Sequence record: PV730302.1
DNA from: a phage
Reading direction: 5' to 3' (one strand)
Length of the DNA stretch: 64,000 nucleotides
Of the stretch, positions 24,038 through 38,500 are shown piece by piece. A program made the position numbers and the translations under genes. The number at the start of each line of letters is the position of its first letter. The stretch's first letter is position 1. Below the pieces are notes generated by a model that worked only from the letters and a program-made list of their open reading frames with translations, was not told the origin of the DNA and did not search any database.

Positions 24038-25177
24038 TTAAAAATATTTCTTATACGATGCCATTACTTTTTCATCAACATCGTTATCAATTTGTGCTAC
24101 AAGGTAAGAACTGATTTCCACTTCCTGAGGAGCAGCCTGTACAGCATCAGAGTTCAGGTATTCGCGAATCCAAGGATATGGATGGCGGGCAGGGGCATCA
24201 GTAATAGGACATGGTAAGCCACATTGCTTCATACGAGAAACTGTCAGGTAATCGACAAAAGCACCCATGTTCTGAGTATTTAATCCAGGGCAAGTACCAT
24301 CTTTGAACAGGTGAGCGGCCCATTCTTTTTCTTGACGGTTAACTTCCATGAAAATATCAACTGCTTCTTGTTCACACTCTTGAGCAATTTTAACCCATTC
24401 AGCACCATCAGTACCAAGTTGGAGTTGACGAATAATGTACTGGGTACCTTTAAGGTGAAGCTGTTCATCACGTGCAATGAACTTCATAATCTTAGCATTA
24501 CCTTCCATGATTTCCATGTTTTTATGGAAGTTAAAGGTGCATGCGAAAGATACGTAAAAACGAATAGCTTCCAGGGCGTTGATTACGTGCAGACAGAGGT
24601 AAAGAGAACGCATTAGTTCGTATTTAGCCTGTTTTACGCCTTCGCTAAACTCATGATATTCTTCTAAAGCATTCTGATAAAGGCGAGTTTTCTCGATAAC
24701 GTCATCATAATAACGACCAATGGATTCGGCACGTTTCATGATAGCATCATCTAACAGAATTTCATCAAATACCTTAGATGGGTCTGTATAGAGGTTACGC
24801 ATGATATGGGTATATGAACGAGAGTGAATGGTCTCACTAAAGGTCCATGTAGCCACCCAAGTATCAAGGCTAGGGTCGGAAATCAAGGCTTGGAGTGCTG
24901 CAGAAGGAGCACGACCTTGGATACTATCCAGAAGTGATTGATACTTCAGGTTATTGGTAAAAATATTTTGTTGGAATTGTGGAAGCTTATTAAATTGAGC
25001 AGCATCCATCATCAAGTTGACTTCTTCTGGACGCCAGAAAAAACTCAACTGCTTTTCACAAAGCTCTTCGAATACTTTATGACGTTGGATATCATAACGG
25101 GCAATACCCAATCCTGAACCAAAGAACATCGGCTCGACTAAAACATCAACTGGGGTAGTATTAAAAACTGTAGACAT
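24038..25177 (-). CDS. nrdB: ribonucleotide reductase small subunit
   Basis: 379 aa continuous ORF (no intron interruption); ferritin-like di-iron helices with conserved E/H residues; synteny with nrdA. Confidence 0.85.
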   Translation of the reverse strand: MSTVFNTTPVDVLVEPMFFGSGLGIARYDIQRHKVFEELCEKQLSFFWRPEEVNLMMDAAQFNKLPQFQQNIFTNNLKYQSLLDSIQGRAPSAALQALISDPSLDTWVATWTFSETIHSRSYTHIMRNLYTDPSKVFDEILLDDAIMKRAESIGRYYDDVIEKTRLYQNALEEYHEFSEGVKQAKYELMRSLYLCLHVINALEAIRFYVSFACTFNFHKNMEIMEGNAKIMKFIARDEQLHLKGTQYIIRQLQLGTDGAEWVKIAQECEQEAVDIFMEVNRQEKEWAAHLFKDGTCPGLNTQNMGAFVDYLTVSRMKQCGLPCPITDAPARHPYPWIREYLNSDAVQAAPQEVEISSYLVAQIDNDVDEKVMASYKKYF

Positions 25178-25212
25178 ATTATTCTCATTTATTATGGGTT
25201 TAAATTATTTTA

Positions 25213-26016
25213 TCACATATTATGTATAAGCACTTCAGTCTGGAATGACACACCTTTTGATACTTTTTGATATCTAGTTTCAAAATATTCAATTTTGAAA
25301 TTGTTGGATAGGGCCCAATCTTTTAGAATGTTGTTATTAGTAACATCTGATAAATTATTAGTTATAATAAATTTAGACTTTGACTGTTTAATTTTATCTA
25401 ACAATTCTAATTCATCCTTTTCTTCCCATCCTGAATATTTAAATTTGGTAGAAAGATATGGTGGGTCGATGAATAAGTTCTTGTTTTCAAAATCTAAATC
25501 TCTGAATGATTTATTTGAAAAACTTAACAGATGTTGTCTATTTTTAAAAGCGGCGAATTTATCCTGTTGCGATTTATTAAAAGAAGTTCTAGAGTATTTG
25601 GCTCTATCCGCAAAAGAAGCTATATACTTATCATCTTTAGAAAATTTTAACATTGAACTGAATGCAAATAAATGTAGAACATACAAATACAGTCCGTTTT
25701 TAGTTTTATCGTATTCCTTTGCCAGAGAGTAAAACGGTTTAGGGTCCACATCATTTAAGCCGAAATCATCAATGATTTGGACAACATCGTTCATTGATGA
25801 AGTTTTCATCGCGTTGTACATATTGATGACATGATAATTAATATCATTACACTCAACTCGTCGCCCACAATTCATAGAAAATCCGAGGCCACCACAAAAG
25901 GCATCTAAAACTGTATTATCATCAAAGCCCAATACAAATCTATTAATAAAATCCATGTATTTGTGTTTTGAACCCGGGTAAGTTATTGCCGAACAGTATT
26001 TCATATTACTCCTCAT
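25213..26016 (-). CDS. Dam-like N6-adenine DNA methyltransferase
   Basis: 267 aa; YPGSK (Dam N-terminal motif), DAFCGGLGFS (FxGxG AdoMet motif) and IDPPYL (DPPY catalytic motif) in alpha-class order; resembles T4 Dam as recalled; AT-rich relative to flanks. Confidence 0.7.
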   Translation of the reverse strand: MRSNMKYCSAITYPGSKHKYMDFINRFVLGFDDNTVLDAFCGGLGFSMNCGRRVECNDINYHVINMYNAMKTSSMNDVVQIIDDFGLNDVDPKPFYSLAKEYDKTKNGLYLYVLHLFAFSSMLKFSKDDKYIASFADRAKYSRTSFNKSQQDKFAAFKNRQHLLSFSNKSFRDLDFENKNLFIDPPYLSTKFKYSGWEEKDELELLDKIKQSKSKFIITNNLSDVTNNNILKDWALSNNFKIEYFETRYQKVSKGVSFQTEVLIHNM

Positions 26017-26058
26017 TTGTTAGTGACTCGTCCGTGAGTCAATTATAATCAGATTTTA

Positions 26059-28314
26059 TTAAAGCTTACATGCTGCACAATCGTCGGCTTTAGGAGTTTC
26101 GATTTCATAGTCATCAGTACCAGAGCCATCACGGGTATTATGGTAATAAAGGTTCTTACCACCGTAGTACCAGAAATACAACAGGTCATCAAGCATTACT
26201 GACATCGGAACTTTTCCTTTTGGGAAAATCTGCGGGTCATAATATGTATTAGCTGATGCCGATTGACACACCCATTTCAACGCTATTGCCACTTGGGTAA
26301 GATAAGGTTTATTACCTTTCTTAGCAAGGGTCCAAGCGTAATCGTAGAGTCCTTGGTTATGTTCTACATTAGGAACTACCTGACGGAAGTTACCTTCTTT
26401 AGATTCTTTAATACTTACCGGACCGCGTGGAGGTTCGATACCGTTTGTAGAGTTGGAAACCTGGCTGCTTGATTCACACGGCATAAGTGCTGATAATGTG
26501 CTATTACGGATGCCATGTTTAGCCAAGTCTTCCCGCAACGACGTCCAGTCACAAACATAGTTAGGGGCTGCGATTTGGTCAATCTTTTTATTGTACCAGT
26601 CGATAGGTAATTCGCCTCGAGACCATTTAGTGTCTGAATAATACTCGCAAGGTCCTTTTTCTTCGGCCAACTTGATTGATGCTCGGATAAGTCCATATTG
26701 TAATCTCTCAAACAGTTCATGAGTTAAATCATTAGCGTCTTCATAAGAAGCAAAGTTGCTTGCCAACCAAGCGGCGTAGTTAGTAACACCAACACCCAGA
26801 TTACGACGTTTCTTGGCCTTCAGAGCTTCAGGAACAGGATAATCTTGGTAGTCCAATAGGTTATCAAGTGCACGTACCTGGACTTCAGCGAGCTCGTTGA
26901 TTTTGTCTTGGTCCTGCCAATCGAAGTTATCCAATACGAATGCAGACAACGTACACAAACCAATTTCAGCGTCCGGACTATTCACGTCAGTAGTAGGGAT
27001 AGCAATTTCACAACACAAGTTGCTCTGTCGAATAGGAGCTTTTTCACGAATAAATGGTGTGAAGTTGTTAGTGTTATCAACGAACTGAGGATAAATTCGT
27101 GCAGTGCCTGAGCGTTCGGTCATGAACAATTCGAAAAGGTCGCGTGCTTTAATACGTTTCTTACGAATACTAGGGTCTTTTTCTGCGGCTTCATACAATT
27201 CACGGAAACGGTCTTGGTCTTCGAAATAAGAATAATAAAGCTCACCACCCATTTCGTGAGGACTAAACAACGTGATGTAATCATTTTTACCGAAACGTTC
27301 CATCATAAGGTCGTTCATCTGGATTCCGTAGTCCATATGGCGAATACGGTTCTCATCGACACCTTTGTTGTTTTTCAGAACGAGCAGATTTTCAACTTCC
27401 AAATGCCAAATAGGATAATAAGCAGTAGCAGCGCCGCCACGGATTCCACCTTGTGAACATGATTTAACAGCAGTCTGGAAATGTTTCCAGAATGGAATAA
27501 CGCCAGTATGTTTGACTTCACCCATGCCAATACGAGAACCTTCAGCACGAATCATACCAACGTTGATACCAATACCTGCACGTTTAGAAATGTATTCAAT
27601 TATTGAGTTAGCAGTTTTGTTAATAGATTTCAGCGAGTCGCCTGCTTCAATAACCACACAAGAACTAAATTGACGAGTCGGTGTACGTGCTCCAGCCATA
27701 ATAGGAGTTGGTAATGAAACCTGACGGGTACTTACAGCATCATAAAAACGAATAATATGTGCCAAACGATTACCTGGCTCTTCTTGGTGTAAGGCCATGC
27801 CAATACACATGATAGCGAACTGAGGGGTTTCGTAGATTTTACCCGTGGTCTTATCTTTAACCAGATATTTCTCTTTCAGCTGCATCGCACCTGCATAGGT
27901 CAATTCAAAGTCACGTTCATGCTTGATATGAGATTCTAAGAAAGTAATTTCTTCTGCAGAATATCGAGACAGCAATTCAGGGTCATATTTACCTTCGTTA
28001 ACACAATAGGAAATATGGTCGATAAAGCTACGTGGTTCGAACTGGCCATAAACTTCTTTACGCAGTGCAAACATCAATTGCTTTGCAGCAACATATTGGT
28101 AATCAGGTTCCTCAACCGAAATAAGGTTGGCTGCGACCTTAACAGTCAGATTCTGGATATCTTTGGTAGTCATACCATCACGAAGATGAGATTTGATTTC
28201 TTCGTATAATTCATAGGGGTCGATTTGGGTTCCTTCACAGCCCCAAGTCAGAACTTTAATAATTTTTTGTGCGTCAAAATCTTGGGATACACCACTACTT
28301 TTTTGTACTTGCAT
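26059..28314 (-). CDS. nrdA: ribonucleotide reductase large subunit
   Basis: 751 aa (T4 NrdA 754 aa); class Ia RNR active-site region ...NLCCEI.../...MPCESS...; C-terminal Cys pair. Confidence 0.9.
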   Translation of the reverse strand: MQVQKSSGVSQDFDAQKIIKVLTWGCEGTQIDPYELYEEIKSHLRDGMTTKDIQNLTVKVAANLISVEEPDYQYVAAKQLMFALRKEVYGQFEPRSFIDHISYCVNEGKYDPELLSRYSAEEITFLESHIKHERDFELTYAGAMQLKEKYLVKDKTTGKIYETPQFAIMCIGMALHQEEPGNRLAHIIRFYDAVSTRQVSLPTPIMAGARTPTRQFSSCVVIEAGDSLKSINKTANSIIEYISKRAGIGINVGMIRAEGSRIGMGEVKHTGVIPFWKHFQTAVKSCSQGGIRGGAATAYYPIWHLEVENLLVLKNNKGVDENRIRHMDYGIQMNDLMMERFGKNDYITLFSPHEMGGELYYSYFEDQDRFRELYEAAEKDPSIRKKRIKARDLFELFMTERSGTARIYPQFVDNTNNFTPFIREKAPIRQSNLCCEIAIPTTDVNSPDAEIGLCTLSAFVLDNFDWQDQDKINELAEVQVRALDNLLDYQDYPVPEALKAKKRRNLGVGVTNYAAWLASNFASYEDANDLTHELFERLQYGLIRASIKLAEEKGPCEYYSDTKWSRGELPIDWYNKKIDQIAAPNYVCDWTSLREDLAKHGIRNSTLSALMPCESSSQVSNSTNGIEPPRGPVSIKESKEGNFRQVVPNVEHNQGLYDYAWTLAKKGNKPYLTQVAIALKWVCQSASANTYYDPQIFPKGKVPMSVMLDDLLYFWYYGGKNLYYHNTRDGSGTDDYEIETPKADDCAACKL

Positions 28315-28380: not shown

Positions 28381-28674
28381 TTATAGGTCTTCTAATGAGA
28401 ACGTGTCTTTGAAAAGTTTGTTAACAATCAAGGCTATCACATCCCCATGACAGTCCTTAGGTTTACAGGTACACGCTATTCGCATACCTCTAAGGGTTTC
28501 AAGATGTTCTCTTTTAATTTCACCTGATTTTATTTTAGCAATAAAGTATTCTTTAAAGTTCTTGATGTTTTCCTCACGGGTCCCATCTTTAAATGGATTA
28601 CCCCACATGGTTCCACGTTGGATGTTGACATCAAAATCTTCTTTATACTTGTTAACAACTCTACAGACTCTCAT
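28381..28674 (-). CDS. small Cys/His-motif protein, possibly DUF4326-like
   Basis: 97 aa; WGNPF ... ACTCKPKDCHGD pattern; position of T4 nrdA.1/nrdA.2. Family assignment from memory only. Confidence 0.3.
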   Translation of the reverse strand: MRVCRVVNKYKEDFDVNIQRGTMWGNPFKDGTREENIKNFKEYFIAKIKSGEIKREHLETLRGMRIACTCKPKDCHGDVIALIVNKLFKDTFSLEDL

Positions 28675-34530: not shown

Positions 34531-35478
34531 TTAATAAAAATCAGCTACTGTAGCAGTTAGTTTAGACAAACCAGATTTAACGAAATAAGGATAGACTTTA
34601 GATTTCGAAGGTTTGTTATACGTATTATATCTTTCAGTAATTAAAGCAACAATATCATCTGGAATATAGTCCATATCAATTAAGATTTGGTTTTCACAGA
34701 AACGTTCATATTGTTCTTCAGTAAGAAGTGTTTTAATTATATCACGGTCGTAATAATTCAGAGCAATCGCTTCAAGTTCCCTGGCACGAGTGCTAGGAGT
34801 ACGTTCGCCTTCAACCATTGTCAACCAGTAGTCACCACGAACTTTAATACTCGCAACGTTATCCTTGCGGTCGCCTTTAACAACCTTAGTTACACAATCA
34901 AGCAATGCATCGCCGGATTTTGTTTTGACGAATTTTTTCTGCATTGGAGACCATTGTTTTACCCCAGGGAATTTATGAAGTTGGGTAAAGTCACCATCAG
35001 AAGAACCAATCATAACAGGGTGACCTAAAGCCGTAAGGATGCGAGTCAATACAGCAATATGGTCATCAGCTTCGATTGTATCGATATTCATAACAATATA
35101 AGGCATGTTTTGTTCCAGTTCATCAACAATAATATGCATTGCTGTGAATAAACCTTCCCAATCAAATGGTGATTCGTCACGTGCCTTAGCACGGTTTTTC
35201 TTATAATAGGAAGAATAACGACGACGCCAATAACCTGATTTGGAGTTATCAACACAAATAACCAGTTGGTTGTAACCTTGTTTTTTAAAGTCTTTAATAT
35301 TTTTCTTAATTGAATTCAACACGAGGTGTCGAAGCATTGCTGTAGTTACTTTAGGAAATCCAGCATTTTCGCCAAATTCTTGGAATGCTGCCGCCATAAT
35401 GATTTGGCTGAAATCTAAGAGTAAAAATCCATCTTTTTGTTGGTCTTCTTCAGGAAGTAAAAAATCTAAATCGTTCAT
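34531..35478 (-). CDS. rnh: RNase H (5'-3' exonuclease, FEN-like)
   Basis: 315 aa; LLDFSQI, SGYWRR..YYKKNR, EADDHIAVL, SSDGDFTQLHK..VKQWSPM.KK, KGD.KDNVAS.KVR match T4 Rnh as recalled. Confidence 0.9.
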   Translation of the reverse strand: MNDLDFLLPEEDQQKDGFLLLDFSQIIMAAAFQEFGENAGFPKVTTAMLRHLVLNSIKKNIKDFKKQGYNQLVICVDNSKSGYWRRRYSSYYKKNRAKARDESPFDWEGLFTAMHIIVDELEQNMPYIVMNIDTIEADDHIAVLTRILTALGHPVMIGSSDGDFTQLHKFPGVKQWSPMQKKFVKTKSGDALLDCVTKVVKGDRKDNVASIKVRGDYWLTMVEGERTPSTRARELEAIALNYYDRDIIKTLLTEEQYERFCENQILIDMDYIPDDIVALITERYNTYNKPSKSKVYPYFVKSGLSKLTATVADFY

Positions 35479-35585: not shown

Positions 35586-38500
35586 ATGGCTGATATTTTA
35601 AAACCTGCATTCCGTGCTACATCCGGACTCGATGCTGCGGGCGAGAAAGTTATCAATGTTGCCAAAGCCGATTACAATGTATTAGATGATGGCGTCAACG
35701 TTGAATTCTTTATAGATGAGAACACCATCCAGGCGTACGACGAGACGCGCGGATATAAGAATGGGTTTGCCGTAATCCATGACCAACGTATCTGGGTTGC
35801 TCAACGCGATATCAATGCTCCTGCAGGAACTTTTACTCCAGGCTATTGGACTGCTACCCGTACTGACCCTAAATGGATTACCGTAGCGTCTCCTACACGC
35901 CAGCTGGCTTCCGGTGAATATATTGCGGTGGATTCCGCTGCTAGCTTTACTACATTTACCCTGCCTCCGAACCCTACTGATGGCGATACCGTTGTAATTA
36001 AAGATATCGGTGGACGTGTTGGGTATAACGAAATAAAGGTCCAATCTAGTTCTGCTCCTGGTGGCGGTAACCAGAAAATTGTTCGTTTTGGTAATCAGTT
36101 TACTGAGACCTTAATTACGAAGCCTTTTTCTTATAACATGCTTATCTTTGCTAACCGTCTTTGGCATTTCTGGGAAGCTGGTAACGAAGAACGCGGTATT
36201 CGTGTAGAACCGAACATGGCCCAGTTCCAATCACAAGCAGGTGATAACGTTCTCCGTCGTTATACTTCAGGTGCAGTGATTAAGTTTACTCTTCCTAAGT
36301 ATGCAAACCAAGGCGATATGATTAAAACCGTTGATATTGATGGTTTAGGAAGTAAATTCCACTTAATCGTTGAAACGTTTGATGCTTCATCTTCATTAGG
36401 TAAGCTTGGTCAGCATAGCATGGAATTCCGTACCTCTGGTGATGGATTCTTTGTTTATAACTCTACCGAAAAATTATGGTATGTTTGGGACGGGGACCGT
36501 CAAACTCGTTTACGAGTAATTCGTGACGATGTTGAGCTCTTGGCTAATGAAAGTGTTATTGTTTTCGGCCCTAATAATACAACACCTCAGACGATTAATA
36601 TCACATTACCTACAGGCGTAGCCCAGGGCGATGTCGTTAAAATCGCATTAAACTATCTTCGTAAAGCTCAGACGGTAAATATTAAGGCCGCTGTAGGAGA
36701 TAAAATAGCTTCTTCAGTTCAATTGCTCCAGTTCCCTAAACGTTCTGAATATCCGCCGGATACCGAATGGGTTCTGAATGATGTATTGACCTTCAATGGT
36801 AACTTAAGTTATACTCCTGTTATTGAACTGAGTTATATCGAAGACACCACTACAGGTGGCAAATATTGGGTTGTTGCTCAGAACGTTCCTACTGTAGAAC
36901 GTGTGGATTCTAAGGATGATTTAACCCGTGCTCGTCTTGGTGTTATTGCTCTGGCGTCACAGACCCAAGCAAACGTTGACCATGAAAATAATCCTGAAAA
37001 AGAACTGGCTATCACCCCACAGACTTTAGCTAATCGTGTAGCGACTGAATCACGTCGTGGTATTGCTCGTATTGCTACAACGGCTCAGGTAAACCAGAAT
37101 ACCGGATTTGCATTCCAGGACGATTTGATTATTTCTCCTAAGAAATTAAACGAACGTACTGCTACCGAAACCCGTCGTGGTGTGGCTGAAATTGCTACGC
37201 AACAGGAAACTGATGCAGGCGTTGATGATACAACCATTATCACTCCTAAGAAGCTACAGACGCGCCAGGGAACTGAAAGCCTGTCAGGTATAGTAAAATA
37301 CGTATCCACCACTGGAACCACTCCTGCGACTTCTAGAGCAACTGTAGGTACTAACGTTTATAATAAGAACACAACTACTTTAGTTATTTCTCCTAAAGCT
37401 TTGGACCAATATAAAGCTAACTATGAGAACCAAGGTGCTGTATATCTTGCTACGCAAGCCGAAGTTAATGCGGGTGCTACTAACCCTGGTTTTAGTAACT
37501 CGGTTGTTACACCTGAAACATTAGGTGCTCGTCGTGCTTCTGATACTAATCACGGTTTAATTGAAATTGCTACGCAAGCAGAGACTGATACTGGAACTGA
37601 TTATACTCGTGCGGTAACGCCTAAGACGTTAAATGACAGGAATGCTACTCAAACACTTACTGGTATTGCTCGTATTGGTACTCAAGTAGAATTTGATGCA
37701 GGTGTATTAGATAATGTTATTTCAACTCCGTTGAAAATTAAAACACGTTTTAATAATACTGCTAGAACTTCTGTCTCAGCAGCCAGTGGTTTGATTGAAT
37801 CAGGAACCTTATGGAACCATTATACACTAGATATCCGTGAAGCAAGTAATACTCAACGTGGTACGGCTCGTTTGGCTACCCAAACTGAAGTTAATACTGG
37901 TACTGATGACAAAACAATCATCACTCCACTTAAGCTTCAAGCTAAAAAGGCTACCGAAAACGCTGAAGGTATTATCCAACTCGCTACTCAGGCTGAAGTT
38001 ATTGCTGGTACGGTAAGTAATAAAGCGTTTAGTCCTAAGCATTACAAATATATCGTCCAACAGGAAAAATCCTGGGAAGCTACTTCTGCTCGTAGAGGAT
38101 ATGTTAAATTAACCACAGGTACAGCCACTTGGGAAGGTGATGATACTAATGGTTCTGTTGCTAACCTGGCTAAATTTGAAGATAATGGCTTTGCTATTTC
38201 CCCTCTTCAAATGAATACGGCATTAACTCACTATCTTCCGATTAAAGGTAAGGCTTTTGACTCTGATAAATTGGACGGATTTGATTCTGCTCAGTTTATT
38301 CGTCGTGATATAGCACAAGATATTAATGCTAATATGACATTCAAACAACCTGTTAGAATTGAAAGTACTTTAGCGGTTACCGGTGCGGTTAATTTGAGTG
38401 GCTCTGTTATTTCAAATAATACTACATTAACCGGTTCTACTACAGTCAATAGCAATTCTACTGTAGGCGCTTTGAATTACATTGAGTTCACTTCACTTTC

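Follow-up and report, generated by a model that had tools for sequence, protein, structure and literature searches.

A Dam-like orphan adenine methyltransferase gene in an optional cassette between nrdA and nrdB of a Dhakavirus-like phage

The methyltransferase gene and its product

T-even phages are a classic model both for DNA modification and for homing-endonuclease traffic. The DNA analyzed here, a stretch of 64,000 nucleotides (nt) from sequence record PV730302.1 (hereafter the window), comes from a Dhakavirus-like phage, as comparison with other records indicates, and on its minus strand the two genes of ribonucleotide reductase are separated by a gene for a Dam-like D12-class N6-adenine DNA methyltransferase. 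Upstream of the methyltransferase gene lies nrdA, encoding the large subunit (26059..28314, minus strand; Pfam families ATP-cone, RNR_lgN and RNR_lgC), and downstream lies nrdB, encoding the small subunit (24038..25177, minus strand; PF00268). An earlier interpretation made from the letters alone, which we call the sequence-only reading, had placed an open reading frame (ORF) of 267 amino acids (aa) at 25213..26016, and the ORF list of the window holds it exactly so, on the minus strand. The coding sequence is probably 25213..26004 (minus strand), i.e. 263 aa rather than 267 aa, because the second ATG at 26004 is preceded by an AGGAG ribosome-binding site (RBS) and because GenBank relatives annotate the equivalent start (792 nt, 263 aa). 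The first ATG, 12 bases upstream at 26016 (minus strand), is the alternative start that yields the 267-aa ORF. Residues are numbered below according to the 263-aa protein unless stated otherwise.

The ORF is a genuine, selectively maintained and full-length gene of a D12-class, alpha-group N6-adenine DNA methyltransferase, and it looks functional. Its similarity to DNA methyltransferases is far beyond chance: the Pfam family PF02086 (D12-class N6-adenine DNA methyltransferase) is matched with E=1.4e-19 and 71.3 bits against a gathering score of 22, residues 13-249 in 267-aa numbering spanning profile positions 1-251 of 253. This was the sole Pfam family detected in the protein, which carries no HNH or GIY-YIG nuclease domain. 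PHROG 56, 'DNA methyltransferase', was matched at 2e-25, and the nearest solved structure by sequence is that of T4 Dam (E=9e-30, approximately 33% identity). An AlphaFold2 model of the protein (predicted local distance difference test score 86.8, predicted template modeling score 0.85) was compared with the Protein Data Bank (PDB) by Foldseek, and the top 24 matches were all T4Dam, E. coli Dam (EcoDam) or DpnM, i.e. GATC enzymes only; T4Dam (1yf3) came first with a template modeling (TM) score of 0.85 and E=6e-21, followed by EcoDam and DpnM. The motifs YPGSK (9-13), FCGGLG (36-41) and DPPY (180-183) stand in the alpha-class order, with motif I (FxGxG) N-terminal to motif IV (DPPY) and the target-recognition hairpin between them at about 115-144. 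In the alignment of this protein and its close relatives (hereafter the clade) with T4-type Dams, K13 (equivalent to T4Dam K11), DxFCGG (34-39), ND (53-54) and DPPY are invariant or nearly so, and P181 is kept in at least 90% of the rows. Pairwise dN/dS, the ratio of nonsynonymous to synonymous substitution rates, is 0.06-0.18 among five alleles, dS reaching 1.8, which shows that purifying selection acts on the gene and that it is no remnant. From the conserved motifs and fold we infer that the protein is catalytically active and transfers methyl groups to N6 of adenine.

The enzyme is also an orphan, as the sequence-only reading had it. No cognate restriction endonuclease gene was found next to the methyltransferase gene, its neighbors being nrdA and nrdB at every locus read, and the top PADLOC match is the class 'orphan methyltransferase' (E=7.5e-32). 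That reading's assignment to the Dam-like alpha-class adenine methyltransferases and its three motifs in their order agree with the profile, structure and alignment results above, and the base composition it had remarked upon is borne out by the numbers, as guanine-cytosine (GC) content is 30.7% in the methyltransferase gene and 40.5% in nrdB, 41.7% in nrdA and 39.5% in the whole window. The T4 background it had given, with mobE in this slot and dam elsewhere, matches T4 gene order, where the counterpart interval reads nrdA-mobE-nrdB.1-nrdB and dam is located between genes 56 and 61 (for the slot see PMC2790892, PMC2988022).

Further out from nrdA and nrdB the window contains denA (a GIY-YIG gene), rnlA, a DUF4326/nrdA.1 gene, td and frd. 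The DUF4326 protein has 97 aa and is encoded at 28381-28674 on the minus strand (PF14216, E=8e-22; PHROG 464), between td and nrdA, which is the position of nrdA.1 in T4.

An optional cassette in the nrdA-nrdB slot

The gene is carried on an 828-bp cassette (25189..26016). Alignment with QL01, CF-SP2 and 236Ecol005PP showed that precisely these 828 bp are missing from the empty allele found in QL01 and other Dhakavirus genomes, the ends being ambiguous by the length of a repeat. The nrdA and nrdB flanks adjoin each other, over a 573-bp span, in QL01 as in the other related records that megablast listed (rows H9-H40). The repeat is an imperfect direct one of 14/15 nt, present as a single copy in the empty allele. 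Its right copy, ATGAGGAGTAATATG (26002..26016, minus strand), carries the RBS and start codon of the methyltransferase gene, and its left copy, ATGAGAATAATATG (25175..25188, minus strand), those of nrdB.

Upstream of the methyltransferase gene and overlapping the nrdA stop codon is a motif resembling T4 middle promoters, with a MotA-box-like GCTTTA-N12-TATAAT (26042..26065, minus strand). The pattern GCTTYA-N11-13-TATAAT is matched three times in the window, where chance would give 0.11 matches, the other two being at 34624-34647 and 37819-37843 (minus strand), and the motif next to nrdA is conserved in the empty QL01 allele as well. The pattern count taken together with published work (PMC2790892) leads us to predict that this motif drives only nrdB in the empty allele and, in the window, the methyltransferase gene along with it. 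Between the motif and the methyltransferase RBS is a stem-loop with a 6-bp stem, GACUCA...UGAGUC (26024..26041, minus strand), which folds with -13.1 kcal/mol (z = -3.25) and is kept in all four aligned phages, the one with the empty allele included. The stem-loop is not terminator-like, no T-run following it, and the terminator scan of the cassette gave no terminator-like sites. Sigma-70-like promoter matches inside the gene were discarded, as they have the wrong orientation and shuffled sequence yields them at least as often. With the promoter-like motif and the stem-loop both upstream of it, the methyltransferase gene sits between the predicted nrdB promoter and leader on one side and the nrdB RBS on the other, and it is presumably co-transcribed with nrdB.

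A protein at least 60% identical to the window methyltransferase is encoded in nine of 50,697 phage records, while about 95 related records match in the nrdA and nrdB flanks only. The carriers are the Salmonella phage CF-SP2 (OM912978.1), a Gelderlandvirus, with 99.6% aa identity; the Dhakavirus-like fDHCT2 and the Tequatrovirus vB_Eco_BGP, with 94% each; five further phages with about 79%, Tequatrovirus where checked; and the Klebsiella phage PhiKpNIH-6 with 72%. The gene lies between nrdA and nrdB in all eight phage records with readable context (the PhiKpNIH-6 record begins inside the gene) and in all seven metagenomic places examined, so the placement given by the sequence-only reading holds here and at every locus whose context can be read. 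Copies in this slot span four T-even lineages. The same slot is occupied in T-even phages by the free-standing homing endonuclease genes mobE and hef (PMC2790892; PMC2988022; Sandegren et al. 2005, cited therein).

GenBank already names the gene in several relatives that have it in the same slot with 79-99.6% aa identity: 'dam' in CF-SP2 and fDHCT2, 'DNA adenine methylase' in 236Ecol005PP and 'DAM' in ECO07P2. These names are automated only. The labels of the CF-SP2 record are unreliable in this region, where nrdB is a 'hypothetical protein', nrdA bears the vaccinia name I4L, and 'dam' is given despite a sub-threshold score. What is already known is, accordingly, the name DNA adenine methylase in GenBank relatives and an enzyme class that is well known, the gene itself being uncommon and accessory; the literature searched yielded no publication on the clade, on its slot or on its specificity.

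Comparison with CF-SP2, by a sliding-window identity profile and blastn segments, revealed a patch of approximately 3 kb centred on the cassette (~24700..27650). Within this patch, which takes in the cassette plus roughly 480 nt from the 5' end of nrdB and roughly 1.6 kb from the 3' end of nrdA, the two phages are 94-100% identical, while the surrounding DNA is 63-82% identical and the edges are sharp. The patch is direct evidence that DNA was recently exchanged between genera. The methyltransferase gene of vB_Eco_BGP is 85-94% identical to that of the window at the nt level and the flanks 76-85%, and in comparison with the 79% and 72% alleles the gene is as diverged as its nrd flanks (70-85% nt identity). 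Judging from these comparisons, both long residence and occasional lateral replacement take place. The sequence-only reading had proposed acquisition or relocation into the slot. The lateral part of this is supported by the CF-SP2 patch and the vB_Eco_BGP allele; a relocated canonical dam does not fit a protein with 33% identity to T4 and MX01 Dam, in a clade of its own and with a score under the Dam cut-off. Nor does the argument from base composition stand. GC content is 27.7% in T4 dam and 30.9% in MX01 dam, and in the clade it is 28.8% for the Tequatrovirus allele and 26.8% for the Klebsiella-type allele, the latter inside a 40% GC locus, so that the clade keeps to 26.8-30.7% irrespective of the GC content of its phage. 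Low GC is a family trait of T-even dam genes, all of which are similarly AT-rich, and it was rejected as proof of recent acquisition.

The cassette has no nuclease. Homologous recombination in the conserved nrd flanks accounts best for its transfer. Homing endonuclease genes are found within approximately 3 kb of the cassette in several carriers and none is near it in the window. They include a mobile endonuclease gene that splits nrdA in 236Ecol005PP (locus L003, 6128-6838), an nrdB intron endonuclease in vB_Eco_BGP (locus L012, 5660-6469), a GIY-YIG/NUMOD3 gene that lies between td and nrdA in the opposite orientation (locus L009, 1929-2657), and I-TevI-type genes in td (loci L016, L018 and L019, 1-714 in each; CF-SP2 locus L001, 8254-8991). 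In the window, codon 42 of nrdB is AAG (25054-25052), followed by FFWRPEE (region 25022-25064, minus strand). It is known that this allele type is found in phages without mobE and is nicked by MobE (PMC2790892). Because nrdB carries the MobE-sensitive type, mobE would be expected to displace the methyltransferase cassette in a mixed infection.

Canonical dam genes and GATC sites

When 1.84 billion cluster representatives were scanned exhaustively by HMMER, one cluster at 50% identity was found to contain the window protein, the next match being only 32% identical, and scans of IMG/VR with the window protein and with the clade alignment as queries gave no relatives. The clade appears to be a small, divergent and T-even-restricted sister of the T4-type Dam.

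The canonical place of dam in T-even phages is between gene 56 (dCTPase) and the primase gene 58/61, where both T4 and MX01 have it. The window methyltransferase gene is approximately 43 kb from this locus, and the window stops about 5 kb short of it. The sequence-only reading had proposed to look for a second dam there. No second D12 gene was detected in the 64-kb window by tblastn with MX01 Dam, and in CF-SP2, QL01, JS10 and fDHCT2, of which the last is the closest full genome, gene 56 and the primase gene are contiguous and no dam separates them; in vB_Eco_BGP, on the other hand, a canonical dam is present together with the window-type gene. MX01 is the sole Dhakavirus record with a canonical dam, its next-best matches being T2 and T4-type phages at 76% identity. 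The window methyltransferase as a query can detect T4-type Dam, and it gave one match in each of the five 79% carriers. In most carriers the window-type methyltransferase is therefore the only Dam-type gene. Canonical dam is accompanied by the same 561-bp upstream ORF in MX01 (ORF28; locus L004, 1935-3274) and in vB_Eco_BGP (BGP_065; locus L011, 5404-6743), and the two are jointly absent from QL01, JS10, fDHCT2 and CF-SP2, which suggests that canonical dam is itself an optional module of two genes.

GATC occurs only 13 times in the window, while 198 occurrences are expected under a maximal-order Markov model. With a ratio of observed to expected of 0.07 it is the most depleted tetranucleotide, the runner-up being CTAG at 0.62. 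The sites are at 1779, 4253, 7992, 8271, 10528, 11629, 13458, 18263, 18699, 22286, 49003, 54544 and 59303, and the stretch from 22286 to 49003 is free of them. The same ratio is 0-0.08 in Dhakavirus loci and 0.2-0.4 in T4 loci, and the 5.7-kb MX01 locus has no GATC where 16 are expected. Depletion was rejected as evidence on the specificity of the enzyme, T4 and MX01 with its canonical dam being depleted too. A literature search found nothing on GATC depletion.

Interpretation and comparison with known systems

Taken as a whole, the explanation we consider likely is that the protein is an active orphan Dam-like enzyme whose gene forms an optional cassette and is spread through recombination in the nrd flanks. 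The promoter-less cassette, which has the predicted middle promoter of nrdB and the 5' stem-loop on one side and the nrdB RBS on the other, would be transcribed jointly with nrdB and also by transcription running on from nrdA, so that the methyltransferase would be expressed early or as a middle gene. The enzyme would flip the adenine of GATC, or of a close ATC-containing site, in replicating phage DNA and methylate it with S-adenosylmethionine. It may provide the sole Dam-type modification in the Dhakavirus lineage, which is normally without dam, and the benefit expected is the shielding of phage DNA from adenine-methylation-sensitive host nucleases; an anti-restriction role, as suggested by the sequence-only reading, is plausible. 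With no mobility gene of its own, the cassette would spread among T-even phages by recombination in the nrdA and nrdB flanks during co-infection, possibly assisted by breaks that nearby homing endonucleases make, and at this locus the empty site and mobE or hef would be its alleles.

Several observations weigh against this explanation. The curated cut-off of the NCBIfam hidden Markov model for Dam, TIGR00571, is 114.85 bits, and T4 Dam (239.5 bits) and MX01 Dam (200.8 bits) clear it easily, while the clade stays under it at 68.7-93.6 bits, with 68.7 for the window protein, 93.6 for the Tequatrovirus allele and 87.4 for the Klebsiella-type allele P0004. The recognition hairpin also differs from that of T4Dam, whose residues F111, S112, M114, R116 and P126 we take to be equivalent to Y119, N120, L122, R124 and P134 of EcoDam. 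The position of R116, the arginine that recognizes the guanine of the fourth base pair (R124 in EcoDam), is occupied by lysine here and in the 94% relatives, and that of P126, the proline contacting the third base pair, by serine or alanine in the clade, and throughout the clade the R130 equivalent is followed by six inserted residues, (A/D)KYSR(T/N); the alignment also shows two short deletions relative to T4Dam. The K9 contact of EcoDam presumably has no equivalent in the window protein, judging from our own alignment to EcoDam. A strictly GATC-specific enzyme would find very few sites to protect in this phage, although purifying selection on the gene is strong, and the presence of both gene types in vB_Eco_BGP argues against simple functional redundancy. 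The residue roles used here for T4Dam rest on alignment and on PMC4417163. In EcoDam, L122 and P134 touch the third base pair, and with R124A discrimination at position 4 is lost and C:G is no longer required (PMC4417163). Because of this effect, the two substitutions and the insertion, the specificity may differ from GATC. An enzyme of the same class that recognizes another site, relaxed (GATN or NATC, for instance) or extended and read by the enlarged hairpin, would lay down a second, non-redundant methylation pattern and would not replace Dam, which we regard as possible but not as probable. Besides the hairpin changes and the effect of R124A, the sub-threshold Dam score, the joint presence with a canonical dam in vB_Eco_BGP and strong purifying selection in a genome with so few GATC sites speak for it. 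Four of the six base-contacting or intercalating residues of T4Dam are kept, namely F111 and S112 (intercalating), M114 and R130; arginine is retained at the R116 position in the 72-79% alleles, and all solved structural neighbors are GATC enzymes. Further, seven of the eight carriers whose whole genome could be searched lack a second Dam-type match, which fits substitution of the canonical dam. Nor is it anomalous for a GATC-poor genome to encode a GATC enzyme, because MX01, whose dam product is 76% identical to T2 Dam, combines both. GATC is what we infer as the default expectation for the recognition site.

The remaining point against the proposed explanation is that the junction alone fits insertion as well as deletion, and the direction of gain or loss is not readable from it. 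The gene could be an ancestral T-even one that was repeatedly and precisely deleted through the 14/15-nt repeat, present-day carriers being survivors. Recombination between the repeat copies would yield exactly the empty site observed, the junctions are identical across lineages, and the divergence of the gene approximates that of the nrd flanks in Dhakavirus, Tequatrovirus and Klebsiella-type carriers. We nevertheless find this history rather doubtful as the main one, in view of the rarity of the gene compared with flank-only relatives and of the transfers evident from the CF-SP2 patch and from the Dhakavirus-type allele in the Tequatrovirus vB_Eco_BGP, although repeated deletion and lateral transfer are not mutually exclusive. 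It is also conceivable, if unlikely, that the cassette hitch-hikes into naive genomes on co-conversion from breaks or nicks that neighboring homing endonucleases make in nrdA, nrdB or td, just as MobE carries the defunct I-TevIII intron. The shape of the CF-SP2 patch resembles MobE co-conversion tracts (PMC2790892), and other carriers do have such genes close by. Yet in the window td and nrdB are uninterrupted and the sole GIY-YIG gene is denA; plain homologous recombination in co-infection accounts for the patch equally well, and MobE is excluded as the driver because mobE occupies the same slot. We give hardly any credence to a decaying or catalytically dead remnant, or to the methyltransferase half of a restriction-modification or defence system, for which nothing more than weak PADLOC matches to Type II methyltransferase models could be adduced; the ORF is intact in all carriers with every catalytic motif kept and a low dN/dS, no nuclease gene is in the cassette, the neighbors are always nrdA and nrdB, and the orphan class is the better PADLOC match. 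Finally, several of these ideas could be combined, so that an enlarged hairpin confers a new non-GATC specificity on a selfish cargo which competes with mobE and hef, rides homing co-conversion between T-even genera, and protects dam-less, GATC-purged phages from a particular class of host nuclease. This combination seems improbable to us.

Returning to the explanation we prefer, it implies that a slot known for selfish nuclease genes such as mobE and hef also houses useful-looking cargo, which moves between genera via recombination in the nrd flanks. If the specificity proved to be non-GATC, the clade would offer a compact natural case of specificity change in the structurally best-understood adenine methyltransferase family, and a new methylation mark to be weighed when coliphages are chosen for therapy against hosts whose defences rely on restriction or depend on methylation. 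Should the specificity turn out to be plain GATC, the enzyme would be a second Dam isozyme encoded at an independent place and mainly a matter for annotators.

Among known systems, Type II restriction-modification differs in that the window gene has no adjacent gene for a cognate endonuclease. The GATC-specific D12 enzymes EcoDam and DpnM (DpnII methylase A) have the same fold and motif order (TM score 0.71-0.75), but in structural alignment they are only 14-16% identical to the window protein. The closest counterpart is T4 Dam (M.EcoT4Dam; PDB 1q0s, 1yf3, 1yfj, 1yfl), likewise an orphan enzyme of a T-even phage with a comparably AT-rich gene, of the same alpha-class D12 fold and of similar length (263 aa here and 259 aa in T4). 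The equivalents of K11, FxGxG, DPPY, F111, S112, M114 and R130 are common to both. The differences are the identity of only 33%, the score of the window protein under the cut-off of the Dam model, the changes R116 to lysine and P126 to serine in the window protein with the six residues added after R130 and the two short deletions, and the location of the gene, between 56 and 58/61 in T4 and between nrdA and nrdB here. As regards the locus, the nearest parallel is with mobE and hef. Unlike these, the window cassette encodes a methyltransferase with no nuclease domain and therefore cannot itself force gene conversion, and it has no internal terminator. What it shares with them is the slot, the form of a promoter-less cassette within the nrd transcription unit, a sporadic occurrence, and the exchange of flanking tracts from the nrdA 3' and nrdB 5' ends.

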